Below, piece by piece: positions 9,200-48,752 of a stretch of DNA of 57,386 nt. The first letter of the stretch is position 1. Each line of letters opens with the position of its first letter. The position numbers and the translations under genes are program-made. Below the pieces are notes generated by a model. That model had not been told where the DNA came from, made no database searches, and saw only the letters and a program-made list of their open reading frames with translations. Source of the DNA: a virus; IMG/VR virus record IMGVR_UViG_3300006141_000016; one strand, 5' to 3'.

Positions 9200-9224
9200 C
9201 TGCGACGTCGCAACGGCAGAAAAG

Positions 9225-9330: not shown

Positions 9331-9504
9331 ATTTTACTGAGAAATGCAATAATATCACGGTTTGACTCCATATTTTATTAACACATCCCTTAAAATTGAG
9401 CAAAACGGCGGATATGACAAAACCGCAGAAAATGCCCTGTATATATAGGGTTCCGCTCATTTTTAAGGCAATTTTCATCCGTAAAAAATCGGTGAAAATC
9501 AGAA

Positions 9505-9528
9505 CGGTTAGCAACACGTTAGCGACAA
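9505..9528 (+). repeat. attP-region repeat (copy 2)
   Basis: CGGTTAGCAACACGTTAGCGACAA, ending immediately before the int stop codon (int occupies 9529..10653). Confidence 0.8.
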
Positions 9529-10752: not shown

Positions 10753-10898
10753 TAACAGTCGGCGAAAATTTCGCTTGCAGGCTGCTCTCGGAGATGATAC
10801 AATCATTGTAGGTTTGTGAGACCTGATTGTATCCCTCCGGGGTATATCTAAAGCCGTTCGGTGTTGGCGCACCGGGCGGTTTTACTTTGGTATAAAAC

Positions 10899-12306: not shown

Positions 12307-12489
12307 TTGCTTTACGATAATGTGAAAGCCATATGCAAAGAAAAGAAGATAACCGTGTCGCGTCTGGAGACAGAACTTGGTTTTCCCAGGAGCAGTATCC
12401 GCAAGTGGAATACGAACGAACCGAGCGTGGGTAAGGTGAAAAAGGTGGCTGATTTCTTCGGCAAGCCAATCGAGTATTTTCTGGAGTAG
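12307..12489 (+). CDS. Cro-like XRE-family HTH regulator
   Basis: TTG start after AAAGGAGGTGA. 60 aa. HTH segment ITVSRLETELGFPRSSIRKW. Confidence 0.8.
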   Translation: MLYDNVKAICKEKKITVSRLETELGFPRSSIRKWNTNEPSVGKVKKVADFFGKPIEYFLE

Positions 12490-30102: not shown

Positions 30103-30412
30103 AGCGATTTCAAGAATGAGATATAGAGTAGACACCGCAACGCATATTATCGGAAAAGGCGTTGACGGAAAAGCTTATGAAGATATGGAAATGGCAATTA
30201 AAGCCCTTGAAGAAATCCAACAGTACCGAGCAATCGGCGCAGTCGAGGAATGCCGGGAGGCAAGGGAAAAGCAAATCCAAAAGAAACCTATCCATGGCGG
30301 GCTATATGCTTGCCCCAACTGCCACACAATTATGTTGCAAGGCGCTTTTGAAGCAAGGGGGAGATGTTGCAAGGAATGTGGGCAGGCATTGGATTGGAGT
30401 GAAACGGTTTGA
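30089..30412 (+). CDS. Zinc-ribbon protein inserted between terS and terL
   Basis: CPNC....CCKEC; 107 aa. Confidence 0.55.
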   Translation: MTENEAISRMRYRVDTATHIIGKGVDGKAYEDMEMAIKALEEIQQYRAIGAVEECREAREKQIQKKPIHGGLYACPNCHTIMLQGAFEARGRCCKECGQALDWSETV

Positions 30413-31731
30413 ACGAAATTAACACCCGGATAGAAAATATCCGCAAAGGCATAGCAAAACGCGCCGCCGCAATGAAAGCAAAGGTGCAGAAGCAGGGCTT
30501 CCAGTTCAAGCCATTCTCCACCAAGCAGAAGAAAGTCCTAACCTGGTGGTGTCCTGCAAGCCCGGTCAAGGATATGGACGGAATCATAGCAGACGGGGCA
30601 ATCAGGAGCGGGAAAACGCTGTCTATGTCCCTGTCATATGTCCTTTGGGCTATGAACAGCTTCAACCAACAGAATTTTGGAATGGCCGGTAAGACAATCG
30701 GATCCTTTCGCCGGAATGTACTGTTTTGGCTGAAACTGATGCTTGCGAGCAGAAAGTATACAGTAATAGACAAGAGAAGCGACAATCTGCTGATTGTAAG
30801 CAAGGGAAACACAGTTAATTACTTTTACATATTCGGCGGAAAGGATGAACGCTCCCAGGACTTGATCCAGGGTATCACGCTTGCCGGAATGTTCTTTGAT
30901 GAAGTAGCACTGATGCCGGAATCCTTTGTCAACCAGGCAACCGGTCGCTGTTCGGTGGACGGTTCTAAGTACTGGTTTAACTGTAACCCGGACAGCCCCC
31001 GGCACTGGTTCAAGGTCAACTGGATTGATAAGGCAGAGGAAAAGCGGCTTGTATATCTGCATTTCACCATGGACGATAATCTTTCCCTATCAGAGCGCAT
31101 AAAGGCACGATACCGGGGAATGTATGTGGGAGTGTTCTTCAAGCGGTATATCCAAGGACTGTGGTGTGTGGCAGAGGGGCTTGTCTACTCTATGTTTGAC
31201 GAGGACAAGCACGTCAAAGACAAGCACATGACCGGGGCGAAAGAATGGGTAGTGTCTGTGGACTATGGAACGGTGAACCCATTTGCAGCAGGCTTATGGG
31301 CATTTGATGGTCGGCACGCTCAAAAGGAATATGAATACTACTACGACAGCAAAGAAACCGGAATCCGGAGAGATGATGAAACACATTACCAGGAAATATG
31401 CAAGCTGATAGGAGATAGAAAGGTATCATTTATCATTGTTGACCCGTCCGCAGCGTCTTTCATTGAAACAATCAAAAAGCATGGGAAGTACATTGCAAAG
31501 GGTGCGGAAAATGATGTGCTGGACGGAATCAGGGTGCAGACAACGTTCCTGAACAGAGGAATTATCAGCTATTACAAGGACTGCGAAGCAACCATAAATG
31601 AGTACGGGCTGTATTCGTGGGATATGGAAAGCCCGGAGGACGCTGTTATAAAAGAGTTCGACCACTGTTTAGATAGCGACCGTTATTTATGTTATACATT
31701 CCTGCGGCGGCGGTTGAGGTGGAAATATTAA
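30409..31731 (+). CDS. terL: Terminase large subunit (PBSX-type)
   Basis: Walker A GAIRSGKT, Walker B MFFDEVA, C-terminal nuclease-like region. 440 aa. Confidence 0.9.
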   Translation: MNEINTRIENIRKGIAKRAAAMKAKVQKQGFQFKPFSTKQKKVLTWWCPASPVKDMDGIIADGAIRSGKTLSMSLSYVLWAMNSFNQQNFGMAGKTIGSFRRNVLFWLKLMLASRKYTVIDKRSDNLLIVSKGNTVNYFYIFGGKDERSQDLIQGITLAGMFFDEVALMPESFVNQATGRCSVDGSKYWFNCNPDSPRHWFKVNWIDKAEEKRLVYLHFTMDDNLSLSERIKARYRGMYVGVFFKRYIQGLWCVAEGLVYSMFDEDKHVKDKHMTGAKEWVVSVDYGTVNPFAAGLWAFDGRHAQKEYEYYYDSKETGIRRDDETHYQEICKLIGDRKVSFIIVDPSAASFIETIKKHGKYIAKGAENDVLDGIRVQTTFLNRGIISYYKDCEATINEYGLYSWDMESPEDAVIKEFDHCLDSDRYLCYTFLRRRLRWKY

Positions 31732-33081: not shown

Positions 33082-34560
33082 ATGGGCTTAATTTCGTGGA
33101 TAAAGGAGAAATTCAAAATGCTGTTTAAAACGGACGCTGAAAAGGCTTTTGGTGTGGAAACGTACCTGTCGCCGGAAATGGACGCTGCTATTAAGCTATG
33201 GCAGCAGTTGGAGAGTGGTAAGCCTCCGTGGGTAGATGGGGATACCAAAACAATCCGGTTTTCAAACACTGTGGCCAGGGAGCTGTCTAAGCTAGTCACA
33301 CAGAATATTGACATTAAGGTGCAGGCCAAGTATGGGATTGGGGAAACGGCGGCCAAAATCCAGAAAGCCATTGACAATTATTTCCTGAAGAACGCTCAGG
33401 AGATTATTGGCAATCAAATCATGCTGGGTGGTGTGATGGCGAAGTGGAACGGTAAGGGAATGGACTACATACCGCCGGATCGGTTCCTGGTGACGGAGTT
33501 TGACAGCAACGGGGATATACATGGGGCAATCTTCTTCTCCTACTACCAGAAAGAAAAAAAGTTCTACACAAGGGCAGAATGGCACAGGTTCGAGGATGGC
33601 ACACAGAAGAACGAAGCCGGTGAAATGGTATCGGTCCACATTTACCAGGTGTCCAACAAAGCCTTTGTGTCGGACCAACAGGACCAGATCGGCCGGGAGA
33701 CCACACTTAAAAATACTAAGTGGGCGGATATTGTGCCGGAGTTTACAGCGGAGAACCTTGAAAAGCCTTTATTCGTATACATAAAGAATCCATACAGCAA
33801 CACCATAGACTCTGACAGTCCACTGGGAGTATCCTGCTTTTCAGAGTGCATAGAGGAGCTTCGGTGGCTGGATATTGCAATGAGTACTATGGGTATAGAA
33901 ACAGAGGATTCGGCACCTAAAATGATTGTCGGGCAGTCTGCAATACAGTATGCGAAAAATAATGGGATTAAACTTCCGAGAATGGTGCTTAATACTGGAC
34001 TGGACGATATGACAGACAAACCATTTGAGCAGTGGCAGCCACAGTTGCAGGTGGCGAGCCGGACGGAGGGCATTAATTTCTATCTGAATATTATTTCTGC
34101 AAAAGTAGGGCTGGATACCGGGACTTTCGTGTTTAACGGTCAAAAGGTGGTGGTTGCCACAGCTACCCAGATAGAAGCCACAGAGCGAAAGACCATCAAT
34201 ACCATGATGATGTATCGTCAAGTCCTGGACAGGCCGGAATCGAACGGAGATGGGCGCGTTGGGGTGATACATGATATTGCGTATATCATTAACGCCATGG
34301 AAGCTATTAACGGCGATATAGCCCCATCCGAATTTGGAAACTATAAGCTGTATGCTGACTTCGGCGATCCATTCAGCAATAAAGAAGAGGACAAATTCTT
34401 TGAGCTGCAGCTTGCTAACCAGGGATATATGGCAAAGTGGCGCTTTAACGTCCGCCACCTGGGAGTTACGGAGGAAGAAGCAAAGCAGATGGTGCAGGAG
34501 GCTGTTGAGGAAAGAAACGCGAATCAACCGGAGGAAAGCAGACTGTTTGGGGAGGAATAG
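33082..34560 (+). CDS. Portal protein (SPP1 gp6-like)
   Basis: 492 aa with AAGGTGAG RBS. Position after terL and before the MuF-like head-morphogenesis gene. Confidence 0.8.
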   Translation: MGLISWIKEKFKMLFKTDAEKAFGVETYLSPEMDAAIKLWQQLESGKPPWVDGDTKTIRFSNTVARELSKLVTQNIDIKVQAKYGIGETAAKIQKAIDNYFLKNAQEIIGNQIMLGGVMAKWNGKGMDYIPPDRFLVTEFDSNGDIHGAIFFSYYQKEKKFYTRAEWHRFEDGTQKNEAGEMVSVHIYQVSNKAFVSDQQDQIGRETTLKNTKWADIVPEFTAENLEKPLFVYIKNPYSNTIDSDSPLGVSCFSECIEELRWLDIAMSTMGIETEDSAPKMIVGQSAIQYAKNNGIKLPRMVLNTGLDDMTDKPFEQWQPQLQVASRTEGINFYLNIISAKVGLDTGTFVFNGQKVVVATATQIEATERKTINTMMMYRQVLDRPESNGDGRVGVIHDIAYIINAMEAINGDIAPSEFGNYKLYADFGDPFSNKEEDKFFELQLANQGYMAKWRFNVRHLGVTEEEAKQMVQEAVEERNANQPEESRLFGEE

Positions 34561-35283: not shown

Positions 35284-35357
35284 TGTGAGGATAGCTTGAC
35301 GGAGCGAAAGCGGCAATCCCTAGTCGTTTCCTCACAATTCCAAAATAGGGAGATTGC
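35284..35357 (+). ncRNA. Conserved structured 5' leader, copy 1
   Basis: Shares blocks TGTGAGGATAGC, GGCAATCCCTAG, TTTCCTCACA and AAATAGGGA with 41616..41686. Has an 8-bp closing stem plus loop-to-downstream complementarity. Confidence 0.55.
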
Positions 35358-35374
35358 AGAAAGGGAGTGCGATT

Positions 35375-36061
35375 ATGAGCAAAAGAATAGACATGACCGG
35401 TCGGAAATATGGGAGATTAACAATCATAGAGCTTGACCGGATAGAGAATAACCACACATTTTGGAAGTGTCGTTGCGAATGCGGAAATATCGCTATAATT
35501 GACGGGGCAAAACTGCGTAACGGTCATACAAAAAGTTGTGGTTGTTTTAAGTTGGAAAATGTACGTAGACAGAGAAAGCATAATGAGTATGAAATTTTTG
35601 ACAGCTATGTAAAAGTCAAATTAAGCGATACAGAGTATATGCTTTGCGATATTGAAGATTGGGAGAAATTAAAGAAACATCACTGGTATGTTAATGCTGT
35701 TGGGTATGCCGCGGGCGGAACAAGTAAAAATGGAGTATTCCTTTTCCACAAGAAAGTGACAAATACCACAAGCGAAATCATTGACCATATCAACATGAAT
35801 AAATTGGACAACAGAAAATGCAATCTGCGGATAGCGGACAAGAAAATCAATTCCATAAACAGAGGATTGCAATCAAATAATAAAACTGGATATAAGGGCG
35901 TTTACCATGATAGGCGGTATGGCACATGGAATGCAAGAGTTACTGTTGCCGGAAGAACCATTCATTTAGGCACGTTTCCAACAAAGGAAGAAGCGATTGC
36001 GGCGAGACAAGCAGGAGAAGAAAAATATTATCTTCCACAGCTTGAATCCGTGAATAAATAG
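35375..36061 (+). CDS. HNH homing endonuclease with a C-terminal AP2 DNA-binding domain
   Basis: IIDHINMNKLDNRKCNLR (HNH_3-like) and GYKGVYHDRRYGTWNARVTVAGRTIHLGTFPTKEEA (AP2). Confidence 0.8.
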   Translation: MSKRIDMTGRKYGRLTIIELDRIENNHTFWKCRCECGNIAIIDGAKLRNGHTKSCGCFKLENVRRQRKHNEYEIFDSYVKVKLSDTEYMLCDIEDWEKLKKHHWYVNAVGYAAGGTSKNGVFLFHKKVTNTTSEIIDHINMNKLDNRKCNLRIADKKINSINRGLQSNNKTGYKGVYHDRRYGTWNARVTVAGRTIHLGTFPTKEEAIAARQAGEEKYYLPQLESVNK

Positions 36062-36097: not shown

Positions 36098-36250
36098 ATG
36101 AGCGATGAAGTAAGGATGTTTGCAATCATGTGTGCAAAGAACAGCATAATGCTTATGTGCTTTACATTATTAGCAATTGTGTTTAGTCATTGGTGGATTG
36201 TATTTTTTGCCGCTTTATTCTGGACATGTCCAGCAAAAGAGGGAAAATGA
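36098..36250 (+). CDS. Small TM protein (50 aa)
   Basis: GGAAAGGA RBS, hydrophobic core. Ends 1 nt before the MuF start. Confidence 0.35.
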   Translation: MSDEVRMFAIMCAKNSIMLMCFTLLAIVFSHWWIVFFAALFWTCPAKEGK

Positions 36251-36251
36251 T

Positions 36252-38207
36252 ATGCTTAGGCCGGAATACTTTGATGGAAAAGAACAGCGCATGATGGAGC
36301 TGTATCAGCAGTTATCCGAGTTTATCCTGAAGGAAATTGCCCGGTTCCTGATTGCTGCCGGGAAGATAACTCCAACAGCTGACCGGCTGCTTCAGCGGCT
36401 CCGGCTGATGGGAGAGACGCAGGCGGAGATTGAGAAGAAGCTGCAAGTCCTGACAAAGCTTTCCAGGAAAGAGCTCCGTGCAATCCTTCAGGATGCTGTC
36501 CTGACATCGTGGGAGATCGATGCGGCTCCTTTTCGGGAGATAGGCATAAATCTATCAGACCCACTCAAAAACCCCGCTGTAATCCGAATTATGGACGCAC
36601 AGTACAAGCGGAGCCAGGGGGAACTGCAGAACCTGACCAGGACTACCATGGACCAGAGCAATGTTGACCTGATGAATATGCTGAGCGAGGCGGACATGCG
36701 GGTGGCTGCCGGAGTACAGAGTTATTCCGCTGCCATAAGCGATATTCTTGACCGGTATGCCCACCGCGGGATATATGTGGACTATCCGAAGACGAACACC
36801 CGCAGGACACTGGAAGCGGCGGTGATGTGCTGTATCCGGACAAGCATGGCGCAGATGGCTGGCCAGGTGACCATGGAATTTATCAAAGAGGCTGGGACGA
36901 ACCTTATCATCACATCGGCGCACACAGGGGCCAGATTCACGGACAAAGACGAACCGGCTAATCACATGTCCTGGCAGGGGAGAGTATTCTACATAACGGA
37001 TGCGGACCTGGCAGAGTTCACGGAGGTAAGGTATAAGATTGAAAGCAGCGGCGAAAGGGCCGGCGGCTCTCCGAACACCAGGAAATATCCTGATTTTCGG
37101 GAAACAACCGGCTATGGTACAGGAGAGGGCCTGGACGGATATAATTGCCGCCATTCCTTCGGGCCTTATGATGAACGCATAGGCAACCCATGGCGGGACA
37201 AGGACGGGAATCTGATAGATGGCGCCGGAAACCTGATAGACAGCGAAGAATCAAAGCAGAAGTATAAGGACTCCCAGCGGCTCCGGGCGATCGAACGCAA
37301 TATCCGGGCAATAAAGCGGCAGCTGGCGGCAAAAGAGCAGTTGATGCAGGGGTCATCCAGGGAAGAACTGGAACGCCTGCAGCCGGAGTATGACAAACTG
37401 GCCTATGAACTTACTAGGGAAAATAAAAAGTATAATGACTTTGCCAAAGAGCATAACCTTACGCCGCAATATGGGCGGACGAAACTGGCTGATTTTGGCA
37501 GGGAGCAGGCAAAGCGGAGTAATGCCGGGGCGAAAAGATATGCAAATAGCCATATGGAATTGCAGGGGGATAATAAAACAGCCGATATTGAAGAAAACAA
37601 TGTCTCAAAACCGGTTGCCCAGGAAGGAAAAGGCAGTTATAATAATATCAGGAGCAGGGAAGAGCTGCAAAGGGCAGCGGAGGATATAAAGTCCCAGATT
37701 GGAAACTTTGCAGTGAATCCATCAAAGTGGAGCGGGAAAATTATTATTGATAATTCACTTGCAGATAAGGGCATACTGGGTGAAAAAAGATGGAGCTGTG
37801 ATATTGTATTAAGTGATACGGTAGATGATGGAACTATATGGCATGAAATGCTCCATTCGTGTTCTATAAGTCATTTTGACTCAAATACATATGTACAAAA
37901 TCAATATATTGAAGAAGCTTCTGTTGAATTTTTAAAACGACAAATTTGTTTAGAGAAAAAAATAGCTTCGGTGGCAGTTTATCAGGATAAAGTAACCACA
38001 TTGCAAATTTTGAATAATAAATTTAAGTATGGAACTGACATGGAATTTGCAAAAGAATTATTTAGTATTCCTCTTCCATTGCGATATCAGTGGCTTGAAG
38101 ATAAGATTGATGAAAGCCTTCATACAATGAGAGTATCTTTTGAGGATTATAATGAGACGATGCGGTTTATTGAAGAATTAAAAGGAGGAGGGGATGGGAG
38201 AAATTAA
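36252..38207 (+). CDS. MuF / SPP1 gp7-like head-morphogenesis protein fused to a C-terminal HExxH domain (MuF polymorphic-toxin architecture)
   Basis: GYNCRHSFGPY MuF motif, a long coiled linker, then WHEMLHSCS in a visibly AT-rich 3' part. Confidence 0.75.
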   Translation: MLRPEYFDGKEQRMMELYQQLSEFILKEIARFLIAAGKITPTADRLLQRLRLMGETQAEIEKKLQVLTKLSRKELRAILQDAVLTSWEIDAAPFREIGINLSDPLKNPAVIRIMDAQYKRSQGELQNLTRTTMDQSNVDLMNMLSEADMRVAAGVQSYSAAISDILDRYAHRGIYVDYPKTNTRRTLEAAVMCCIRTSMAQMAGQVTMEFIKEAGTNLIITSAHTGARFTDKDEPANHMSWQGRVFYITDADLAEFTEVRYKIESSGERAGGSPNTRKYPDFRETTGYGTGEGLDGYNCRHSFGPYDERIGNPWRDKDGNLIDGAGNLIDSEESKQKYKDSQRLRAIERNIRAIKRQLAAKEQLMQGSSREELERLQPEYDKLAYELTRENKKYNDFAKEHNLTPQYGRTKLADFGREQAKRSNAGAKRYANSHMELQGDNKTADIEENNVSKPVAQEGKGSYNNIRSREELQRAAEDIKSQIGNFAVNPSKWSGKIIIDNSLADKGILGEKRWSCDIVLSDTVDDGTIWHEMLHSCSISHFDSNTYVQNQYIEEASVEFLKRQICLEKKIASVAVYQDKVTTLQILNNKFKYGTDMEFAKELFSIPLPLRYQWLEDKIDESLHTMRVSFEDYNETMRFIEELKGGGDGRN

Positions 38208-39177: not shown

Positions 39178-39501
39178 ATGGGAAACGAAGAAAAGAAAGA
39201 TGAAGTATTGAACATTGCAAACGAATTGCTTCAAGAAATGAAGATTCAGGCGGAAAGATCGCATAAAGCGCTGATAACTGTTGCATGGCTTTGGTTTGCG
39301 TCTGTAATAGCTATTGTGGCCGGATTCCTGATTTACCTGTACCAGTATGATTTTACGGCAACAGTGGAGCAGACCGGGGTATACACTCTTATGGACAGTC
39401 AGGGAAATGTCATATCGTCAGATCTGACGCCTGAGGACATAATCAAGATAGAGGAGATTTTGGAAAGTGGCAAAGACCAAGGTGACCAAGAGCAGAAGTA
39501 A
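39178..39501 (+). CDS. Single-pass membrane protein (107 aa)
   Basis: GGAGGGG RBS. TM segment LITVAWLWFASVIAIVAGFLIYLY. Confidence 0.6.
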   Translation: MGNEEKKDEVLNIANELLQEMKIQAERSHKALITVAWLWFASVIAIVAGFLIYLYQYDFTATVEQTGVYTLMDSQGNVISSDLTPEDIIKIEEILESGKDQGDQEQK

Positions 39502-39547
39502 GAAGAGCGGCAAGAAGAGAGGAACGGCGAAAAGGAAGAAGTAAGGA

Positions 39548-39757
39548 ATGGCACGAAACATTATCCCGGATTTCAGCAGAGAGAAAAGAGAATATTTCAG
39601 GAGAGAATGCAATTTCACTCCAAGAGAAGAACAACTTTTTGATTTGAGGAACCAGGAATATTCTTTGGAGGAATGCGCCGAACTTATGCACTGCAGTGAA
39701 TCCACCATAGGACGAATCAGTAAAAAGATGCTTCGGAAGATAATGGAGCAAATTTGA
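39548..39757 (+). CDS. Small sigma-70 region-4-like / LuxR-type HTH regulator
   Basis: FTPREEQLFDLRNQEYSLEECAELMHCSESTIGRISKKMLRKI. Confidence 0.6.
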   Translation: MARNIIPDFSREKREYFRRECNFTPREEQLFDLRNQEYSLEECAELMHCSESTIGRISKKMLRKIMEQI

Positions 39758-39787
39758 CGGTTTTATGAGAGACTTTTGAAAAGATTT

Positions 39788-39820
39788 AGAGGCTTATCTG
39801 ACATGGTAAGTCTCTTTTTT
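39788..39820 (+). terminator. Intrinsic terminator
   Basis: AGAGGCTTA...TAAGTCTCT 9-bp stem followed by TTTTTT. Confidence 0.75.
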
Positions 39821-39853
39821 GTATGCGAAAATATAGGCGTAGGAGGCATACAA

Positions 39854-40021
39854 ATGCTTTTTAATCTTTGGAACTATACCCCGTCTTACCAAAGCGCGAG
39901 TGACGGGATGATGATAGAGGATGCAATTAAGTCAATGGAGGAGAAAGATGTATCCGAACAATTCCATGCTGAATCAGCAGATGGCGCAGCTCGATCAGGA
40001 GTATGCGCAGAGAAAAGCTAA
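39854..40021 (+). CDS. Possible 55-aa ORF overlapping the next gene
   Basis: Strong AGGAGG RBS 7 nt upstream, but it overlaps 39948..40439 by 74 nt out of frame. Confidence 0.25.
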   Translation: MLFNLWNYTPSYQSASDGMMIEDAIKSMEEKDVSEQFHAESADGAARSGVCAEKS

Positions 40022-40439
40022 TATCATGCAGAGTTTCTACGACCAACAGCAGGGAGGTAGCTGGGGACGGCAGAGCGCACAGGGAACACAGCAATCGCAG
40101 ACATCTAGCCAAAATGTAAACTGGATATATGTTTCCGGCGTTGATGGGGCAAAGAATCAGATTGTGCAGCCGGGACAAACTGCCTGGATGATGGATAATA
40201 ATGAGCCTTATTTTTATGTAAAATCCGTGGATAATGTGGGAAGCTCCACTTTCCGTATATTTCAGTTTGCGGAGGTGCAGGAAATTCAGCCAGAACAGGC
40301 AGTACAACCACAAATAGACCTGTCTCAGTACGTCCAGCGTGACGAATTTGACGCTTTAAAGGCGCAGCTTGAACAACTTACCAATACACAGAAAAAACAG
40401 CCTACAAAGGCAAATAAGGGGGTAGAGGACAATGGCTAA
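39948..40439 (+). CDS. Q/N-rich protein of unknown function
   Basis: GGAGGAGAAAG RBS. Q-rich N-terminus, then a conserved-looking core NWIYVSGVDGAKNQIVQPGQTAWMMDNNEPYFYVKSVDNVG. Confidence 0.65.
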   Translation: MYPNNSMLNQQMAQLDQEYAQRKANIMQSFYDQQQGGSWGRQSAQGTQQSQTSSQNVNWIYVSGVDGAKNQIVQPGQTAWMMDNNEPYFYVKSVDNVGSSTFRIFQFAEVQEIQPEQAVQPQIDLSQYVQRDEFDALKAQLEQLTNTQKKQPTKANKGVEDNG

Positions 40440-40725
40440 TCCTTTAATGGGAATGATGGGCGGATCCCAAGGGGGCAATCCGGCAATGGCGCATATGGGG
40501 AATATGGAAATGATTAAACAGGCAGCGCAGTCTGCCAAAAAGATGATGGGTATGCTGAATGGGGTTAAGAACCCGCAGCAGGCTCTCATGATGGCGGCAC
40601 AACAGAACCCTGGACTTAATTCTGTAATGCAGATGGTGGGCGGACGGGATCCTCGACAAGTTTTTTATGAGGAATGTAAGAAAAACGGAGTAAATCCAGA
40701 GGATATTTTAAAAGAATTACGCTAA
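40432..40725 (+). CDS. Met/Gln-rich small protein of unknown function
   Basis: 97 aa. MGMMGGSQGGNPAMAHMGNMEM...NPQQALMMAAQQNPGLNSVMQMVGG. Confidence 0.6.
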   Translation: MANPLMGMMGGSQGGNPAMAHMGNMEMIKQAAQSAKKMMGMLNGVKNPQQALMMAAQQNPGLNSVMQMVGGRDPRQVFYEECKKNGVNPEDILKELR

Positions 40726-40816
40726 CACCACCAAAGACGGTGTTAAGAATAAACTGACGCACAAATCGAAAGTGCGCCACTAACCCCTAAAAGCTATGGG
40801 GTAGAAAGGAGAAGCT

Positions 40817-41467
40817 ATGGATAGCTCTAATGATTTTGCAGTAGGTTATGCAGTCGGTGACAATGCCGCAAACCGTAACTGCGGTTATGGCAATGGCATG
40901 TTTGGCGCAGACGGAGGATTCTTCTGGATCTTCGCATTGCTGTTACTGCCCATGATGACCAACGGCGGTCTGTGGGGGACCAACGGCAGGGGACAGGCTG
41001 TGACAGAAGCAGGGCTGTGCAATGCCATGAATTTCAACAACCTGGAGAACGCTGTGGGTCGTTTGAGCGACCAGCAGGCGGCAATCGCACGCCAGACAGA
41101 CAATGCGATTTGCAATCTGGGTTATGAAACCCTGCGGAACTTTAACAGCCTGGAACAGCAGTTGGCGGCTTGTTGCTGCGGTATCGAAAAGGCAATCCTT
41201 GAGAACCGCTATCTGGCAGCACAGAACACCAGCGAGATTATCCAGGCACAGGAGAGAGGGACACAGAAAGTTCTTGACTGGCTGTGCAACCAGGAAAACC
41301 GCAATTTGCGTGACGAGAATATGAGGAATTATATTCAGTCTCAGTTCTGTGGCGTTCCGAGATTCCAGCCTGGTACGGTATACGGTGCAGTTCCGGCAAA
41401 TCCGTTTTTCGGAAACTGGAATAACTGCGGCGGATGCGGTGGCTGTTGCGGAAACGGCAACATCTAA
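40817..41467 (+). CDS. Cys-rich protein with a YjcZ-like G/Y/F hydrophobic N-terminus and CGGCGGCCGNGNI tail
   Basis: AAAGGAGAAG RBS. NCGYGNGMFGADGGFFWIFALLLLPMM is reminiscent of tiny YjcZ-type sporulation proteins. Contains a CCC motif and terminal Cys clusters. Confidence 0.6.
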   Translation: MDSSNDFAVGYAVGDNAANRNCGYGNGMFGADGGFFWIFALLLLPMMTNGGLWGTNGRGQAVTEAGLCNAMNFNNLENAVGRLSDQQAAIARQTDNAICNLGYETLRNFNSLEQQLAACCCGIEKAILENRYLAAQNTSEIIQAQERGTQKVLDWLCNQENRNLRDENMRNYIQSQFCGVPRFQPGTVYGAVPANPFFGNWNNCGGCGGCCGNGNI

Positions 41468-41496
41468 TCATTGGTCACACTGACCGGGGAGAAAGG

Positions 41497-41530
41497 CGGG
41501 GTGGCTGAAAAATCGGTTGCCCCGTTTTTA
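41497..41530 (+). terminator. Intrinsic terminator
   Basis: CGGGGTGGC...GTTGCCCCG stem (with G-U pairs) followed by TTTTTATT. Confidence 0.7.
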
Positions 41531-41576
41531 TTGTACATTGAAAACCGAATACTGGCAGTAGTTTGTGGGCTTTAGA

Positions 41577-41610
41577 ATGGTACAACTGATTTATTCCCTC
41601 ATGGTAAAAT
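41577..41610 (+). promoter_or_regulatory. Conserved promoter motif copy (ATGGTACAA-N19-TAAAAT)
   Basis: Exact spacing. Followed 6 nt later by leader copy 2. Confidence 0.65.
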
Positions 41611-41615
41611 ATCAT

Positions 41616-41686
41616 TGTGAGGATAGCCAACCGGTGGCGACAAGTGGCAATCCCTAGCCATTTCCTCACATTGTAAATAGGGAATT
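41616..41686 (+). ncRNA. Conserved structured 5' leader, copy 2
   Basis: Same four conserved blocks and the same geometry relative to the -10 as 35284..35357. The variable inner hairpin is GCCA...TGGC. Confidence 0.55.
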
Positions 41687-41705
41687 ACAAGGAGGGAATG
41701 TAATT

Positions 41706-42617
41706 ATGGGAATGACAAATAATATGTTGTCGCTTGTGCGGTATGTGGCAGAAAATGACCTATCAAAAGCCAAACAGTATGCGCTTAGCTGTTGTGTGGA
41801 AGATACCACACAGAAAAACAAGTATTATGTATCAAGGTATAAGCAGTTGCTCACTACTGGCGGCTTAAATATGATTGAATTGCCGCCTAACGTGTCAAAA
41901 TTTGCCACAATGGAAGATGTATCTATGACATACATAGAAAATAGGTATTATCTGACGGAGGACGAAAAGAAACTGTTTGAACTGATACGAGATATGAACG
42001 ATGTTGCCTTACAGCTTATGGAAAAACAGATACCATATCTGAATGCTACTTTGTTATACGGAGAAAGCGGAGTTGGAAAGACAGCATTTTCAAAATATGT
42101 CGCATACAAACTTGAAATGCCTTATCTGTATGTGAACTTTTCCAAAATGTTAGACAGCTTACTTGGAGGAACCGCAAAGAATTTGACTGCATTGTTTAAT
42201 TATATCAATCAGCAAAAATGCGTAATAATGCTTGATGAAATTGACTGTATGGCAGGAAATAGAAAGTATTCTGATGGTGGAGCGTCGGCAGAAGTATCAA
42301 GAAGTACAACATGCCTATTACAGCTTTTAGACGCAGTTACAAACGACCATGTAATACTAGCGGCAACAAATCTGATTGATGATGTTGACCCGGCTGTAAA
42401 AAGAAGATTTACAGAAAAACATGAAATGCACCGTCTGACCACTGATGAAAATTATGCTTTCATCTGTCAATACATGAATAGCACTGGTTTTAAATATAGC
42501 CTTCTATCTGCAATGGAATATGCGAGGCAGGAACATTCACAAGCGGAAATTATGACACATATGACAAGGTGCATTGCACAAACGCTTATAAACAAAAAGT
42601 CCATAGTTGAATTTTAA
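41706..42617 (+). CDS. Classical AAA+ ATPase (FtsH/Cdc48-clade AAA domain)
   Basis: Walker A GESGVGKT, Walker B IMLDEID, sensor LAATN, RRF. Confidence 0.85.
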   Translation: MGMTNNMLSLVRYVAENDLSKAKQYALSCCVEDTTQKNKYYVSRYKQLLTTGGLNMIELPPNVSKFATMEDVSMTYIENRYYLTEDEKKLFELIRDMNDVALQLMEKQIPYLNATLLYGESGVGKTAFSKYVAYKLEMPYLYVNFSKMLDSLLGGTAKNLTALFNYINQQKCVIMLDEIDCMAGNRKYSDGGASAEVSRSTTCLLQLLDAVTNDHVILAATNLIDDVDPAVKRRFTEKHEMHRLTTDENYAFICQYMNSTGFKYSLLSAMEYARQEHSQAEIMTHMTRCIAQTLINKKSIVEF

Positions 42618-42685
42618 TAAAACCCAGAAACTACTGTCAGTAAATCGGCAGTAGTTTTTATTTTGCAGAAATGGAGGAAAATATT

Positions 42686-43090
42686 ATGAGTTGTAAAGCG
42701 GCAATATACACAGCCAACACAGGCGCACAAGCATTGCAGATTGGGAGCGTTCTTTCTCTTGGCTCCATTATCCGGCGTTTCGGGTGTGGCGTAAATCTGA
42801 ACGGAAACGGCGTTGTGATTGACAGAGAAGGGTATTATGACGTGGACGCGTCTATCACAGCCACGGCAGCGGCAGCTGGCACTGTAACGGTAACATTGCT
42901 CCGTGATGGTGTAGCAGTTCCGGGGGCGGTAGCGTCTGCAACGGCGGCAGCAGCAGGAACGGTTGCACTCCCTATCACTGCACTTGTCCGGCAGTCTTGC
43001 GGTTGCTCTGGCGGCTCTACTCTTACACTCGTTCTGGGTGGCACAGCGGCGACTATCAATAATGTGGCGCTGAAAGTCATTAAGTTGTAA
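42686..43090 (+). CDS. TNF/C1q-like jelly-roll protein (BclA C-terminal / BxpB-like pattern)
   Basis: GGAGGAAAA RBS. REGYYDVDASITATA..GTVTVTLLRDGVAVPGA......LTLVLGG...INNVALKVIKL resembles exosporium BclA-CTD/ExsFA proteins. Confidence 0.5.
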   Translation: MSCKAAIYTANTGAQALQIGSVLSLGSIIRRFGCGVNLNGNGVVIDREGYYDVDASITATAAAAGTVTVTLLRDGVAVPGAVASATAAAAGTVALPITALVRQSCGCSGGSTLTLVLGGTAATINNVALKVIKL

Positions 43091-43329
43091 TGGACGGCAG
43101 GCAATTTGACGCTCTGGACGCTTTGGGCGTGGCTTCGTTCCTTTTGGGGTTGGAAAATCTTTATGAGAATAGGAGCCAGTCCGCTCAGAATGACGTAGGA
43201 GCCGCAAACGACAAGCAAGCGTCTTATCTTCTGTCCGAGATAGGAAAACGCCTTGACGGGCAGGATAGGACGCTTGAAGCGATATTGAATAAGTTGGAGC
43301 AACTGGAAAGGAGATTGGACAATGCATAA
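43090..43329 (+). CDS. Small coiled-coil protein
   Basis: TAATG-coupled. 79 aa. Confidence 0.55.
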   Translation: MDGRQFDALDALGVASFLLGLENLYENRSQSAQNDVGAANDKQASYLLSEIGKRLDGQDRTLEAILNKLEQLERRLDNA

Positions 43330-43762
43330 GCTGATGGAACGGATTGAAAAAGAACTCCATGAGATTGCGGAAAAGGGATTTTCTCCCACGAATATAGACA
43401 ATGCCATGAAGTTCGTGGACATGTACAAAGACCTAAAATATGTAGAGTACATGGGATTCACAGAGGGCGCTTATCATGAAGTGAAAGAAGAGATGATGCC
43501 GGGCAAGACAAGGACCATGGAGCGCCGAGAAGGCTCCCGGTTTGACCGGAACATCAATGAACTGTATGATAAATATCTCTGGTGCAAGAAAGAGTATGCC
43601 AGGGACGGTTCTGAGGTTCACCGACAGAAAGTGACGGAGGCCCTTGAACGGCTGATGTCGGAAATCTGCGATTTGCTGTTTGACATCAACCGTGATGCTG
43701 ACTTTAAGGCAGAGAGGGACGTTGTGCTGAAATATAAAAAGAGCATGGAGCAGATTTCATAA
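43322..43762 (+). CDS. Helical protein of unknown function (146 aa)
   Basis: Overlap-coupled ORF. Last gene before the terminator. Confidence 0.6.
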   Translation: MHKLMERIEKELHEIAEKGFSPTNIDNAMKFVDMYKDLKYVEYMGFTEGAYHEVKEEMMPGKTRTMERREGSRFDRNINELYDKYLWCKKEYARDGSEVHRQKVTEALERLMSEICDLLFDINRDADFKAERDVVLKYKKSMEQIS

Positions 43763-43769
43763 GAAAAAG

Positions 43770-43793
43770 GGCGGTAGGTGTTATCCTGCCGCC
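43770..43793. terminator. Bidirectional terminator hairpin
   Basis: GGCGGTAGG...CCTGCCGCC, with TTTTTCTT on the minus side and TGTTCTTT on the plus side. Sequence-related to 9225..9247. Confidence 0.7.
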
Positions 43794-43996
43794 TGTTCTT
43801 TACACAAGAAAAATCTAAATCGTTCAATGTCGTATTCTACGGTAACACAGTTGTTGTCAGCAGTATACAGAGCGTATTCTGTGCCGTATGACGCCTTACG
43901 GGAGCGTATTTCAGAACCGTCCGAAAGCCTATACAAACCTTTGAATCTATGGCTATAAATAAAAGATTTCATTCTGTCAAAATCCGAGTTCGTCAT
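43781..43996 (-). CDS. Small protein (71 aa), minus-strand operon
   Basis: GAGGAGGAT RBS before ATG 43996. Confidence 0.55.
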   Translation of the reverse strand: MTNSDFDRMKSFIYSHRFKGLYRLSDGSEIRSRKASYGTEYALYTADNNCVTVEYDIERFRFFLCKEQAAG

Positions 43997-44036
43997 ATCC
44001 TCCTCACTTTCTCCCTGTATTTCTAACAAGGCTACA

Positions 44037-44213
44037 TCAATATTCAGGAATCATACTGGAAAGTTCTTCCATCTGCTCTTTAGTAATCAATTCTGCAGTT
44101 CTGGCGAACATGACCTGACCGTGCCGGAATGCATAATCAACCTTTCCGCATACCCAACTTTCAAGCAGGATTTGATTTTTCAGGTGCTCATACCATTTAT
44201 TCTTTTCATTCAT
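44037..44213 (-). CDS. Small protein (58 aa), minus-strand operon
   Basis: GGGAGGAAG RBS. MNEKNKWYEHLKNQ... Confidence 0.5.
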   Translation of the reverse strand: MNEKNKWYEHLKNQILLESWVCGKVDYAFRHGQVMFARTAELITKEQMEELSSMIPEY

Positions 44214-44261
44214 ATGATTACTCGCTTCCTCCCTGCATTACCCGGCAGGGACGGGGTAAAA

Positions 44262-44486
44262 TCAATCAATAGCTACTTCGATGTAATGTTTCCAGGTTCC
44301 ATCTGATTGCTTGCCAAAAGACCCAAACCTTTTTAAGGTGCGTTCTCCAAAAATACTTTTTATGAGCTCAGATCCACTCATATTATGACTGGAAATGAAT
44401 TGCCCATTGGACGCTGTTTCCCTAACCTCAAAAATATCAGGCGAGTCCCAACCAGACCAAATTTTTAAAACATCTTTTGCCTTCAT
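44262..44486 (-). CDS. Small protein (74 aa), minus-strand operon
   Basis: ORF in the track. AAGAAAGAAGGGATGAT upstream. Confidence 0.55.
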   Translation of the reverse strand: MKAKDVLKIWSGWDSPDIFEVRETASNGQFISSHNMSGSELIKSIFGERTLKRFGSFGKQSDGTWKHYIEVAID

Positions 44487-44518
44487 ATCATCCCTTCTTT
44501 CTTACAGCATAACCTAGG

Positions 44519-44755
44519 TCATTTTTCTATCAATTCAAGATTATAAAGCATATTCTCTAAAGATACATATGCGACCATCATGTCACATTTAATATCTGCA
44601 AAATCTTCATCCGAGATTTCCGAAACGATGTCTTCATGCTTCGATAATTGTTTTTCATACCATTCATCAATTTCGGCTTCCAACTTTGCGGATTTTTCTA
44701 CTAAGGCGTTGTGCCTTTCAATCTTTTTAGAGATATAGTTTGGTATTTTCGGCAT
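44519..44755 (-). CDS. Small acidic protein (78 aa), minus-strand operon
   Basis: GGAGGAAGA RBS. Confidence 0.6.
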   Translation of the reverse strand: MPKIPNYISKKIERHNALVEKSAKLEAEIDEWYEKQLSKHEDIVSEISDEDFADIKCDMMVAYVSLENMLYNLELIEK

Positions 44756-44802
44756 TCTTCCTCCATTTCCCCCGGCGCAACCCCGCCGGGTGGGTGGTGT
44801 GG

Positions 44803-44961
44803 TTATTTTTTAACCATGTGTTTACTTACTTCGTAAATAATAGATAAAATTTCAAAATTTATGCTTTCGAGTTTTTCTTTTGTAAAAATGAAATCATTTG
44901 TTCTGGTTTGGTGTTTTAGTATTTCTTCAATCATATCTTTTTTCGTGAGTTCTTTTGTCAT
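44803..44961 (-). CDS. Small protein (52 aa), first gene of the minus-strand operon
   Basis: GGAGGATATGGAAA RBS before ATG 44961. Confidence 0.5.
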   Translation of the reverse strand: MTKELTKKDMIEEILKHQTRTNDFIFTKEKLESINFEILSIIYEVSKHMVKK

Positions 44962-45118: not shown

Positions 45119-45337
45119 GTGATAATTTACAAGGATATTCTGCAAAAACTCAAAGACGCAGGATACAACACGAACCGCATAAGGAAAGAGGGATTGCTGT
45201 CAGAAGGTACTTTGCAGAGATTGAGAGAGGGCAGGCCAATCACAACAGAAACGATAGATATTATATGTAACCTGACAGGGTGCAAGGTCGAGGAAATAAT
45301 AGAGCATAAAATCTCCCACGACAATGGGCGGCAGTGA
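45119..45337 (+). CDS. XRE/Cro-type HTH regulator divergent from the small-gene operon
   Basis: GTG start after GGGAGGTGG. LLSEGTLQRLREGRPITTETIDIICNLTGCKVEEII. Confidence 0.7.
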   Translation: MIIYKDILQKLKDAGYNTNRIRKEGLLSEGTLQRLREGRPITTETIDIICNLTGCKVEEIIEHKISHDNGRQ

Positions 45338-45581: not shown

Positions 45582-45672
45582 GGCAAGATAGCCCTGACTC
45601 CGAACGTGGAGCAATCAGGTATGTTGGGTTCAGCATTTGAACAAAACGCAGGTTCAATTCCTGCTCTTGCCA
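45582..45672 (+). ncRNA. 91-nt tRNA-like element with a non-canonical core
   Basis: Perfect 7-bp acceptor stem GGCAAGA/TCTTGCC and a canonical T-arm GCAGG-TTCAATT-CCTGC. I could not fold standard D or anticodon arms. Confidence 0.4.
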
Positions 45673-46864: not shown

Positions 46865-46934
46865 TTTCTGCATAAACAGTGCAGAACATTTCCCTTTCCA
46901 AGCGCCTGCCCATTGCGGGCGGGCGCACCCTCCT

Positions 46935-47007
46935 CGGATTTTAGCGCAGTTGGCAGAGCACCTGTCTTATATACAGGCGGTCGGTGGTTCGATTCCACCA
47001 ATTCCGA
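46935..47007 (+). tRNA. trnI(UAU): tRNA-Ile, anticodon UAU
   Basis: Manual cloverleaf: 7-bp acceptor stem (one mismatch), D-arm GCGC/GAGC with a GG loop, anticodon stem CCTGT/ACAGG with loop CTTATAT, T-arm GGTGG-TTCGATT-CCACC. Confidence 0.7.
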
Positions 47008-47152
47008 TTACCCCGGCAAAGGTTTATTTGCCTACTCCCTTGCGTGGGCGGCACGCTATAAAAACGCTATGGAGGAAAACTTGGCAAAGTATAAATGCTT
47101 ACTCTCATATGCGGACAGCGCATTATAAAAAATGTTATGGAGGACATGAAGC

Positions 47153-47761
47153 ATGAAAAACATTGAACAGATTTTGAAAGAAGCAGGAGTTGAGGTTACG
47201 GACGAGCAGAAAGCGGCGATTGTTTCCGAGGTTGGCAAGAACTACAGAACATCTACTGACTACGATCGGCAGGCTAAGAAGCTGGAAGCGGCGGAATCTG
47301 ACAGGGACGCTTACAAAGGGCAGCTGGACACGGCGAATGAGACCCTGGAGAAGTTCAAGGACATTGACCCAGAGAAACAGGCAGAGGAAATTCAGAAGTA
47401 CAAGCAGGCGGCAAAAGAAGCGCAGGAAACCGCAGACAAACGGATTCTGGAGCGTGACCAGCGGGACTACCTCAAAGGTGAGTTTGACAAGCTGAAAATC
47501 GAATCAGGACGTGTCAGGGATTCGCTTATGCGTGAAATCATGGGCGAAGACGGTTTGAAGTGGAAGGACGGCGAATTTATGGGGCTGTCGGACTATCTGG
47601 AAAAGGAGAATGAAAAAGACCACTTCTATCAGACCGAAGCTGAAAAGGCAGAAGCCGAAGCCAAAGAGAAAGCCGCCGGAAGTGCGCCGAAATTTACAGA
47701 CAAGTCCGAGCCGAAGCAGACCCAGGTAAAAGATACCAGTCCGGCTCCTGTGATTTTCTAA
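47153..47761 (+). CDS. Scaffolding protein (Phage_GP20-like)
   Basis: Coiled, charged 202 aa. N-terminus MKNIEQILKEAGVEVTDEQKAAI typical of GP20 scaffolds. Precedes the capsid gene. Confidence 0.75.
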   Translation: MKNIEQILKEAGVEVTDEQKAAIVSEVGKNYRTSTDYDRQAKKLEAAESDRDAYKGQLDTANETLEKFKDIDPEKQAEEIQKYKQAAKEAQETADKRILERDQRDYLKGEFDKLKIESGRVRDSLMREIMGEDGLKWKDGEFMGLSDYLEKENEKDHFYQTEAEKAEAEAKEKAAGSAPKFTDKSEPKQTQVKDTSPAPVIF

Positions 47762-47789: not shown

Positions 47790-48752
47790 ATGGCTATTGA
47801 TTCATTAAACCTTGTAAAACTTTCCGACTTGGCAGGAACCGAAGACGGAAAACTGAAACTTGCAGAGGAATATAAGGGCATTATTGAGAATGTCGGCAGG
47901 CGGACGATTTCAAGCCTTTTCAAAAATCAGAGATTATCCGGCGACCCGCAGGCAGGAACGCTTGTGGCGAAAAGATTTGCTTCTGCGAAATCAGAGGAAT
48001 ACGGCACGGCAAGGGCGGCAAGAAAAGGAAAGCCCGGCAGGGGATTTGAGGTCGCTGTTGATATCGACATTGACAAGGAAATCATGGAGGAATACGAGGA
48101 AAAGGATATCCGCCTTGGTGGAATCCCCGGCTTACTGTCTGAAAGGCGCACAGCTATCACCCGTGCCATGGTTCGGGAGTTGGATGAAAACTTTTTCCTT
48201 GTGGCCATTGGTAAGCGAAAAGAGAGTGACGGTACTGTCGGAACGGTGACCGGCGGCACAGAGGTCACGGCATCTGGAGATACCATCAAAGACCGGGTGA
48301 CAGCTGTCGTGATGAAACTGCACACCGCAAAGAATGAGTTCGTGGACGGTATTGAAAAAGAAGACATTCATGTTGTCCTGTCCCCGGAAGCCTATGAGGA
48401 AATGCGAGATTATATCGACACCAAAGGAAACGCCAATGTTCAGACGGACGTTGCGGAGTTCGGACGGTATCACGGCGCATGGATTTACTCCAATGTCCAC
48501 CAGCCGGAGGGTATTGAGATTATCGCTATGTGTACCGGGGCGATTGCGGAGCCGGTTATGGCGGACGAATACCAGGCAAAGCAGATTGAGCTTTCCAATG
48601 CGTATGCAATCGGAATGTTCTTCCACTACGGTTGCAAGGTTGTTATGCCTGACCTGATTTTCTACAGCAAGAAACCCGGTGCGGCCAGTACAAGCGAGGC
48701 CGGAGAGGAATCTGGCGGCACGACAAGGGCAAAGAGTACGAAGCTGTCATAA
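47790..48752 (+). CDS. Major capsid protein
   Basis: 320 aa immediately after the scaffold gene. Assigned by position and size. Confidence 0.8.
   Translation: MAIDSLNLVKLSDLAGTEDGKLKLAEEYKGIIENVGRRTISSLFKNQRLSGDPQAGTLVAKRFASAKSEEYGTARAARKGKPGRGFEVAVDIDIDKEIMEEYEEKDIRLGGIPGLLSERRTAITRAMVRELDENFFLVAIGKRKESDGTVGTVTGGTEVTASGDTIKDRVTAVVMKLHTAKNEFVDGIEKEDIHVVLSPEAYEEMRDYIDTKGNANVQTDVAEFGRYHGAWIYSNVHQPEGIEIIAMCTGAIAEPVMADEYQAKQIELSNAYAIGMFFHYGCKVVMPDLIFYSKKPGAASTSEAGEESGGTTRAKSTKLS

Follow-up and report, generated by a model that had tools for sequence, protein, structure and literature searches.

The viral record IMGVR_UViG_3300006141_000016 in IMG/VR (57,386 nucleotides, referred to below as the window) contains seven co-oriented open reading frames (ORFs) at 39948-40439, 40432-40725, 40817-41467, 41706-42617, 42686-43090, 43090-43329, and 43322-43762. 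We call these g1, g2, g3, the ATPase gene, g5, g6, and g7, respectively. A first-pass annotation, made from the sequence letters, had described them as a single late module and had suggested that the AAA+ ATPase and the Cys-rich proteins encoded there assemble or remodel a proteinaceous layer. We found that all seven ORFs are present as described, and the starts at 39948 and 42686 are backed by GGAGG-type ribosome-binding sites and by comparison with relatives. It was also correct that none of the genes has a standard virion or lysis role, as no gene matches such families in Pfam, PHROG, or NCBIfam. Our analysis supports a different grouping, however: it is highly probable that the seven genes represent two nested entities of separate origin, an accessory cassette and a mobile ATPase moron (the term, which comes from lambdoid and HK97-like phages, denotes a gene with its own promoter and terminator that has been inserted among conserved genes). 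The earlier description got most of the individual elements right but grouped them wrongly.

Six of the seven genes are part of a widespread cassette in phages of gut Clostridia. We fetched 84 phage loci through g3 and identified the cassette members in them with iterated hidden Markov models (HMMs). These loci contained g1 (82 loci), g2 (70), g5 (81), g6 (16), a g7-like gene (9), and, in 69 cases directly 5' of g1, a homologue of a small regulator gene that heads the cassette in the window; the ATPase gene was found in none of them. Gene order was constant across the 84 loci: regulator-g1-g2-g3-g5, followed in some by g6 and in some of those by g7. After dereplication, eight divergent g3 lineages remained, with g1 in all eight, g5 in seven, g2 in six, and the regulator of the sigma-r4 type found in the window in five. 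The first-pass annotation had staked its module on the co-occurrence of all seven genes in other phages; six of them do recur in order, but the ATPase gene is not among these. These results show that the cassette is conserved, collinear, and accessory.

Close relatives of the window phage reveal how the ATPase gene is placed within the cassette. In L066-L068 (portal 91% and minor head protein 77% identical to those of the window), the six cassette genes are contiguous and lack the ATPase gene, with g3 and g5 ~90 nt apart and with identities to the window of 88% (g1), 98% (g2), 86% (g3), 95% (g5), 96% (g6), and 88% (g7). Because the g3-g5 spacer in these relatives consists only of a terminator and the g5 ribosome-binding site, the corresponding stretch of the window, ~41534-42665, is an insertion. 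Its left edge is marked by an intrinsic terminator after g3 (41492-41533, + strand), which had been proposed to lie beyond 41467 and which the predicted fold bears out (-24.2 kcal/mol, z -3.2, U-run). This terminator is kept in relatives; in L066, this hairpin is found ~20 nt upstream of the g5 ribosome-binding site.

The inserted DNA (41534-42665, + strand, 1.13 kb) comprises a predicted promoter, an RNA leader, the ATPase gene (41706-42617), and a terminator (42626-42660, + strand; -16 kcal/mol, z -5.3, U-run). The promoter and the conserved leader had previously been assigned to a transcription unit running from 41706 to 43762. Both the promoter motif and the leader, an int-alpA RNA, are present, but the terminator directly 3' of the ATPase gene indicates that they serve a one-gene unit. 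We conclude that the ATPase unit is a self-contained moron placed just 3' of the g3 terminator, and that the ATPase is dispensable for the cassette.

Relatives of the ATPase were found at 61 loci in IMG/VR, one of which (L005) encodes a protein 92% identical to that of the window, while the others are ~70-74% identical. Only L005 has the promoter, the leader, and the upstream synteny (regulator, g1, g2, and g3), and there the ATPase gene is followed by a different BclA-like allele. In the ~60 other contigs, the ATPase gene lies 3' of methyltransferase genes and is followed by assorted unrelated small genes. Searches of the 61 loci with tblastn left g5, g6, and g7 undetected, and the conclusion drawn from a tblastn search of all neighbours in this set, that nothing co-occurs, proved to be a product of sampling bias and was overturned when the survey was seeded with g3. 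A further promoter-leader-ATPase-terminator unit, 90% identical, is found in L155 (a Bacillota metagenome-assembled genome, MAG), where it occupies the g2|g3 junction and has a similar hairpin 3' of the ATPase gene.

The slot that the ATPase occupies in the window can also hold other genes. In L150, a 222-aa gene fills the g3|g5 slot and a PP-loop (SGGKDS) gene lies 3' of g6, each preceded by an int-alpA RNA (10795-10862 and 12336-12401, scores 42.1 and 37.2). In L152 and L153, a 110-aa gene and a DUF5131 gene are found at those two places, behind the same promoter block. The ATPase unit carries a predicted promoter and a terminator of its own, syntenic genes occur with and without it between them, and it stands at another junction in L155; it therefore fits the definition of a moron and has moved within the cassette. 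It is like other phage morons in its predicted promoter and terminator and in its variable junction, and unlike them in having a structured int-alpA RNA leader and a ~45-nt conserved block upstream of the promoter.

The predicted promoter of the ATPase unit (TGGTACAA-N19-TAAAAT, 41578-41610, + strand) was identified by motif count and fixed spacing. There are nine TGGTACAA sites in the window, all on the + strand, compared with 1.5 expected, and in eight of these a TAnnAT hexamer follows at a distance of exactly 19 nt (sites at 2731, 7583, 29114, 35246, 38630, 41578, 45360, and 55842). Intergenic copies lie 5' of the holin gene, the packaging region, an HNH endonuclease gene, the unit that holds the small regulator, the ATPase gene, and the region that holds a Lar-like gene, and also at 55842. 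Sites of this class are often found immediately 3' of a terminator hairpin, so that they punctuate the late region. No TGGTACAA promoter was found 5' of g1. The small regulator, a 69-aa protein of the sigma-r4 type, is a candidate specificity factor for this promoter class. Upstream of TGGTACAA in the ATPase unit is the ~45-nt conserved block (TTGAAAACCGAATA..GGCAGTAGTTTGTGGGCTTT, window 41540-41577). Its window copy stands only before the ATPase gene; the block also precedes the ATPase unit in L005 and L155 and other cargo in L150 and L152. It could serve as an activator site or as a substrate for recombination.

The leader is a copy of the int-alpA RNA motif (Rfam RF02996; 41616-41682, + strand; 41.4 bits compared with a gathering score of 35.8), and a second copy (35284-35350, 45.9 bits) lies 5' of the HNH endonuclease gene. 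The fold consists of a three-way junction and a loop-to-tail pseudoknot. In a small sample of six copies, 7 of the 17 pairs of the three-way junction showed compensatory (double) changes. The pseudoknot forms between the loop of the second hairpin and a purine-rich element farther downstream, which covary (TCCCTA/TAGGGA, CCCTGA/TCAGGG, and GCCTAT/ATAGGC); the purine-rich element of the HNH copy may be a Shine-Dalgarno sequence. In score and in its supported three-way junction, the RNA conforms to the int-alpA motif, but its setting differs from the one for which the motif is named: the copies lie 5' of genes for an HNH endonuclease, an AAA ATPase, a 222-aa protein, and a PP-loop protein, rather than 5' of integrase or alpA. 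A literature search for the motif gave nothing that looked related by title and abstract. Other cargo genes also lie behind the promoter block, and two of them (both in L150), like the HNH gene of the window, have the RNA leader. The occurrence of the block and leader before such varied genes suggests that the promoter and int-alpA block form a portable expression module, which would carry diverse cargo into terminator-proximal junctions.

The product of the inserted gene is a 303-aa classical AAA+ ATPase, best described as an orphan IetA-like protein. Its assignment to the AAA family, made in the first-pass annotation, is secure (PF00004 at 3.3e-25, 89.5 bits compared with a gathering score of 21.2), and the catalytic motifs are intact: Walker A (GESGVGKT, residues 119-126), Walker B (VIMLDE, 173-178), sensor-1 (AATN, 219-222), and the RR pair (233-234) of the second region of homology. 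The nearest solved chains are VCP-like, Cdc48, and Rix7 proteins (~1e-23), and the protein matches phrog_3757 at 1.2e-58. The PADLOC profile for IetA (PDLC02196) matched at 1.2e-45, with residues 21-301 aligned to positions 35-309 of the 374 in the profile, so that the N-terminal domain is included. The top NCBIfam family was likewise the "anti-phage ATPase IteA," at 130.5 bits (far under the equivalog cut-off of 510), compared with 63.6 bits for the next family.

In IetAS, an AAA+ ATPase (IetA, the antitoxin) is paired with a subtilisin-like protease (IetS, the toxin); initial work described a toxin-antitoxin pair of plasmids, later work an anti-phage system whose mechanism is still unknown (PMC13069673). 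The window ATPase resembles IetA in scoring best against IetA profiles, in belonging to the classical AAA clade, and in its intact catalytic motifs. Unlike IetA, it is encoded by a single-gene phage moron without a protease partner. We found no IetS-type gene next to the ATPase gene, where the next gene is g5 (134 aa), and no peptidase family among the scanned ORFs of the window. In the ~60 relatives, the first downstream ORF (start within 250 nt) was at most 208 aa long, and none was protease-sized. The relatives adjoin DNA methyltransferase genes, and some of their loci have matches to Lar-like restriction-alleviation proteins. An anti-defence role is the simplest interpretation of an orphan antitoxin-type ATPase that is encoded by a phage and whose relatives have methyltransferase neighbours. 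By this reasoning from sequence, it is plausible that the window ATPase is an anti-defence factor that would neutralise an IetS-type host defence. A genuine IetAS-like pair is present in another phage: Paenibacillus phage Yyerffej (L001, 6980-10392) encodes an AAA ATPase 26% identical to that of the window together with a 695-aa subtilisin-like protein, next to its lysis genes. Annotations given to this IetAS-like pair in Paenibacillus larvae phages include "RecA-like protease" and "peptidase domain protein."

The gene that heads the cassette lies outside the region originally described. It encodes a small helix-turn-helix (HTH) regulator of the sigma-70 region-4 type (39548-39757, + strand, 69 aa), whose matches to Pfam Sigma70_r4 (1.2e-4) and TIGR02937 (2.8e-7) fall under the family cut-offs. 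The cassette is in every case headed by a regulator gene, in most lineages one of this type; in L158 and L159, an OmpR-type response regulator takes its place (9247-9915 in L158), and in L009 a large serine recombinase gene (8145-9506) is inserted between the regulator gene and g1. The regulator gene is followed by an intrinsic terminator (39788-39815, + strand; -14.5 kcal/mol, z -4.2, U-run), and a hairpin with a T-run is found at this place in nearly all lineages, where it usually separates the regulator gene from g1. Between this terminator and g1, and overlapping the g1 start, is a small ORF (39855-40021, MLFNLWNYTPSYQSASDGMMIED...) with its own AGGAGG site. The ORF is conserved in L066, and another small gene stands at this position in some lineages.

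The proteins encoded by g1, g2, and g3 have the compositions that were noted originally. The g1 product (39948-40439, + strand, 163 aa, 18% Gln) has a Q-rich, low-complexity N-terminus, a small and conserved alpha/beta domain at residues ~57-110, and a C-terminal helix. In its AlphaFold model, only the 55-residue alpha/beta core at 57-110 was confident (pLDDT > 90), and a comparison of this model with folds in the PDB gave no match at E < 0.1. The protein matches phrog_21718 at 1.3e-15. Among its 31 matches in BFVD at E ≤ 0.001, none was of characterised function; these matches come from contigs labelled as sipho-, podo-, and myoviruses. The g2 product (40432-40725, + strand, 97 aa, 15% Met) is Met/Gln-rich with NPQ-type repeats, its gene has an 8-nt overlap with g1, and wherever the iterated HMM found g2 it lay in the g1-to-g3 interval; Pfam, PHROG, and NCBIfam gave no match to the window protein.

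The g3 product (40817-41467, + strand, 216 aa) has a Gly-rich N-terminus, a single hydrophobic segment (FFWIFALLLLPMM; maximum KD19 hydropathy 1.64), a predicted helix at model residues 123-175, and a Cys-rich C-terminal tail (CGGCGGCCG). It contains 12 Cys, and the residues that are invariant in the family are L41, L42, L44, P45, C68, C99, and the CCC at 119-121. The protein matches phrog_16490 at 2.3e-9 and has 1172 homologues; among the 120 of these that were listed, none has a name or a Pfam domain. The likeness of its N-terminus to YjcZ, which the first-pass annotation had pointed out, is one of composition: there was no NCBIfam or Pfam match at E ≤ 1 except an irrelevant one at 0.087. 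Profiles of g1 and g3 found nothing under E 0.2 among solved structures. Searches of g1, g2, g3, g6, and g7 against Pfam, NCBIfam, and PADLOC gave no credible family, only weak matches (for example, to Csm1_N, DUF16, DUF1016_N, and PDC-S02), and scans of divergent members of these five families and of the slot proteins gave no family either.

The g5 gene (42686-43090, + strand) encodes a stand-alone jelly-roll domain of the BclA-C/C1q-TNF-like type. A likeness to the jelly-roll of exosporium proteins had been proposed for this ORF. The similarity is full length, but the match to PF18573 (BclA_C; 3.4e-6, profile positions 2-126 of 128) scores 27.4 bits, which is under the Pfam gathering score of 38. 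A profile of 13 g5-family members matched the solved BclA C-terminal domains 2z5w, 1wck, 3twi, and 2r6q at 2e-5 to 3e-5, with positions 6-133 aligned to 7-133, and g5 homologues, including those of L152 and L153, have precomputed BclA_C matches. In aligning over the whole domain, g5 is like the BclA C-terminal domain and BxpB of the Bacillus and Clostridioides exosporium. It is unlike them in lacking a collagen-like stalk and an N-terminal exosporium-targeting region, and in being phage encoded beside g1-g3 and g6, which matched no characterised family in the libraries covered. We found no literature on BclA in Lachnospiraceae prophages. The g5 slot is allelically variable, with divergent alleles in L005, L155, and Butyrivibrio virus Ceridwen, and with unrelated Cys-rich proteins in L069 and in Clostridium perfringens phage XP41-N3.

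The last two cassette genes overlap their neighbours. The g6 product (43090-43329, + strand, 79 aa) is short and helical, with a hydrophobic N-terminal segment, and matched no family in Pfam, PHROG, or the scans with divergent members. Its start overlaps the g5 stop codon in the window, and in 15 of the 16 loci with g6 the two are 0 to -3 nt apart; g6 is taken to be translationally coupled to g5. The g7 product (43322-43762, + strand, 146 aa) is helical and charged, matches phrog_28802 at 7.5e-22, and is encoded with an 8-nt overlap with g6. This cassette member varies with lineage: the gene is adjacent to g6 in L066-L070, pushed away by insertions in L150 and L152, and represented by longer Arg/Tyr/Gly-rich versions in L155 and L009, whereas a counterpart in Ceridwen was named by visual resemblance only. 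A hairpin at 43769-43794, found by terminator scan (predicted fold -20.9 kcal/mol, z -4.9), closes the cassette and is shared with the convergent minus-strand genes that follow.

Sources of the cassette include Lachnospiraceae MAGs and phage contigs recovered from gut-type samples, human faeces among them; it was also found in the isolated virus Ceridwen and in phage XP41-N3, in which all of its genes are annotated as hypothetical. The hosts of its carriers are Clostridia (Lachnospiraceae, Butyrivibrio, and C. perfringens). Its genomic site varies. In the lineage of the window, it occupies a gap in the head module, between an SPP1 gp7-like minor head protein gene and the scaffold gene. In L069, L160, and Ceridwen it is directly 3' of the holin and endolysin genes, in L158 it lies between the tail and holin genes, in several lineages it is upstream of an SNF2 helicase gene, and in XP41-N3 it is upstream of Gam and Erf. 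The commonest site is the junction of the tail and lysis genes with the early genes. Upstream of the cassette in some phages is a gene for a conserved protein of ~125 aa (WIKYNPNP...DCA[IV]RA...), which is located at 2560-2937 in L005 and at 6528-6905 in L154; it lies a few genes away in L005 and immediately before g1 in Ceridwen. It is not found in the window, and it resembles a papain-like peptidase by eye only.

The window phage is a temperate siphophage. Its genome assembled as a circle of ~57,255 bp, with an exact 131-nt terminal repeat (bases 1-131 are identical to 57256-57386), and the main genes include those for the tape measure (43-1833), a holin-like protein and an Amidase_3-LysM endolysin (7632-9199), integrase (9529-10653, minus strand), primase/helicase, methyltransferase, large terminase (30409-31731), portal (33082-34560), HNH endonuclease (35354-36061), and the minor head protein (36177-38207). 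The scaffold gene (47153-47761) is followed by a 320-aa ORF (47790-48752), a capsid gene candidate assigned by position only, and then by the head-tail adaptor gene and further genes toward the tape measure. Identical copies of window proteins were found in Lachnospiraceae MAGs, Acetatifactor among them, and megablast of 39500-44000 against GenBank phages gave no match.

The cassette lies in the 9-kb gap between the minor head protein and scaffold genes, which also holds a Lar-like protein gene, a Cro/C1-type HTH gene (45119-45337), and, between the cassette and the HTH gene, an island of five small convergent genes on the minus strand (43781-44961). No family could be assigned to these five genes, and none of them is common to the ATPase loci or the close relatives compared. 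Two tRNA matches lie at 45582-45672 and 46934-47008; one is a tRNA-Ile gene (anticodon TAT) just 5' of the scaffold gene, and the other is a weaker tRNA-like match (34 bits, with long insertions and no ARAGORN call). In the tail-fibre region, there is an exact 47-nt direct repeat (5561-5607 and 6407-6453) with a spacing of 846 nt.

We propose that the cassette is a separately regulated, non-core operon whose products form a complex at the envelope of the infected cell. The hydrophobic segment of g3 and the overlaps between genes point to several proteins that associate at a membrane as one complex, with a variable head. In this proposal, g3 would anchor the complex in the membrane through its hydrophobic segment and contribute a helical stalk and the Cys-rich tail, and g5 would form a trimeric, allelically variable head that sets specificity. 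The g6 and g7 proteins are proposed to be stoichiometric partners of g5 because their genes overlap, and the low-complexity g1 and g2 proteins could either associate with g3 or act as its chaperones. The complex would be active at about the time of lysis and would not be a core part of the virion. The ATPase would be a hexameric enzyme of the unfoldase type, kin to the antitoxin half of IetAS and without its protease, that most plausibly neutralises an IetS-type defence; remodelling of the cassette proteins is a less probable role. The dedicated regulator, the variable location, and the variable g5 slot fit an accessory operon better than a core virion component. A canonical lysis system was ruled out as an identity for the cassette, because the holin-like gene and the endolysin gene are already present at 7632-9199.

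Several observations weigh against this proposal. The g1, g2, g3, g6, and g7 proteins match nothing characterised, the structure model of g3 failed (pLDDT 42) and was not used, and the membrane anchor depends on a single segment of borderline hydrophobicity. No signal peptide was apparent by eye in the cassette proteins, which leaves surface display of g5 unexplained. The high conservation of the cassette could fit a structural role equally well, and the presence of g1-like proteins in phages labelled as sipho-, podo-, and myoviruses is compatible with a capsid protein. The ATPase scores far below the equivalog level, is ~65 residues shorter than the IetA profile, and shares its promoter class with lysis and packaging genes, a late timing for an anti-defence gene. 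Its independence from the cassette is also not complete, as it occurs beside or inside cassettes at three positions: g3|g5 (the window and L005), g2|g3 (L155), and near the regulator gene. This last arrangement was seen in the lineage with 73% identity, where a regulator homologue lies 0.3-4 kb 3' of the ATPase gene in 22 of the 61 loci, and in 10 of those 22 cassette genes then follow (g3, mostly with g2 and/or g5). Genes of one accessory region may have been shuffled locally to give this recurrence, or the ATPase may have an optional link in function to the cassette.

We weighed three other explanations. If the cassette encoded proteins associated with the virion, for instance a head decoration or head fibres that bear g5 as their trimeric knob, and the ATPase were an unrelated moron, the position of the cassette between the minor head protein and scaffold genes in the window's lineage, its constant co-orientation with late genes, and the g1-like proteins in all three tailed morphotypes would be accounted for. 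Exposed virion parts typically carry variable knob-like domains, and g5 has a weak match (0.054) to the C-terminus of a tail-spike PHROG. Most lineages, however, place the cassette elsewhere, after holin and lysin genes or before genes for SNF2 helicase or Gam and Erf. This explanation must also accommodate a dedicated regulator (a response regulator in one lineage), terminators that insulate the units, the anchor-like segment of g3, and the tolerance of insertions of unrelated genes and a serine recombinase, and we consider it improbable. A role in prophage-borne defence or superinfection exclusion, with g3 as a membrane effector, g5 as a variable sensor, and the IetA-like ATPase as a defence gene, would suit the integrase of this temperate phage, the insulated morons and the cassette's own regulator, and the allelic g5 slot. 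The best family of the ATPase is a component of a defence system, Paenibacillus phages do carry a true IetAS-like pair next to their lysis genes, and Lar, methyltransferase-like, and PP-loop genes are found in the neighbourhood. PADLOC, on the other hand, returned nothing for the cassette genes g1-g6 and only a marginal N-terminal match (1e-3) for g7; the ATPase promoter class is shared with lysis and packaging genes; and the cassette seems too widespread and too stable in gene order (>1000 g3 homologues) for such a system. We regard this role as quite improbable, somewhat more so than a place in the virion.

The least probable of the explanations, and one to which we assign little weight, is the original one, in which all seven genes form a single module and the AAA+ ATPase assembles or remodels a layer of g3-g5 proteins as capsid decoration or as a modification of the spore surface. 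The three positions at which the ATPase adjoins cassettes, its unfoldase-type AAA domain, and the BclA C-terminal fold family of g5 speak for such a module. The ATPase is absent, however, from every one of the 84 loci fetched through g3 and from the closest relatives; it is an independent unit with its own promoter, leader, and terminator; it is found at a different junction in L155; and unrelated cargo occupies the same slot. The g1-g3, g6, and g7 proteins match no characterised family in Pfam, NCBIfam, or the solved structures, and this covers spore-coat and exosporium families. Modification of the host spore surface, one of the functions originally put forward, is further weakened by the presence of the cassette in a Butyrivibrio phage, as Butyrivibrio fibrisolvens is not known to sporulate, and we rank it low.

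Compared with these alternatives, we favour the accessory cassette with an inserted ATPase moron, and for this explanation as a whole, its anatomy together with the functional readings, we estimate a probability of roughly 0.55. The functional readings of the cassette and of the ATPase are the weak part of it. A more specific version, in which regulator-g1-g2-g3-g5 is an unrecognised phage-made, membrane-anchored assembly with a helical, Cys-rich stalk, low-complexity partners, and a trimeric C1q-like head that can be exchanged, the IetA-type unfoldase serves as an optional remodeller, and the int-alpA block is portable, is tentative, and we think it rather unlikely to hold in every part.

The region provides no evidence for an AAA+-driven assembly module, and separating the ATPase from the cassette averts the conclusion that an AAA+ protein assembles a Cys-rich layer. 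What is worth following up is the widespread uncharacterised cassette and the context of the int-alpA RNA. The cassette is well defined and conserved in order, and with five families outside Pfam it is a target for the annotation of gut-phage "dark matter." The use of int-alpA RNA as a leader of interchangeable inserted genes provides a context that could help to find the role of this RNA, and the idea that this orphan, phage-encoded relative of the IetAS antitoxin might counter host defence is testable. If the cassette does encode a membrane-anchored assembly with an exchangeable head, it would represent a new phage-host interface, for example in the control of lysis or release, in exclusion, or in host-cell targeting, that is common to more than 1000 phages of gut Clostridia.

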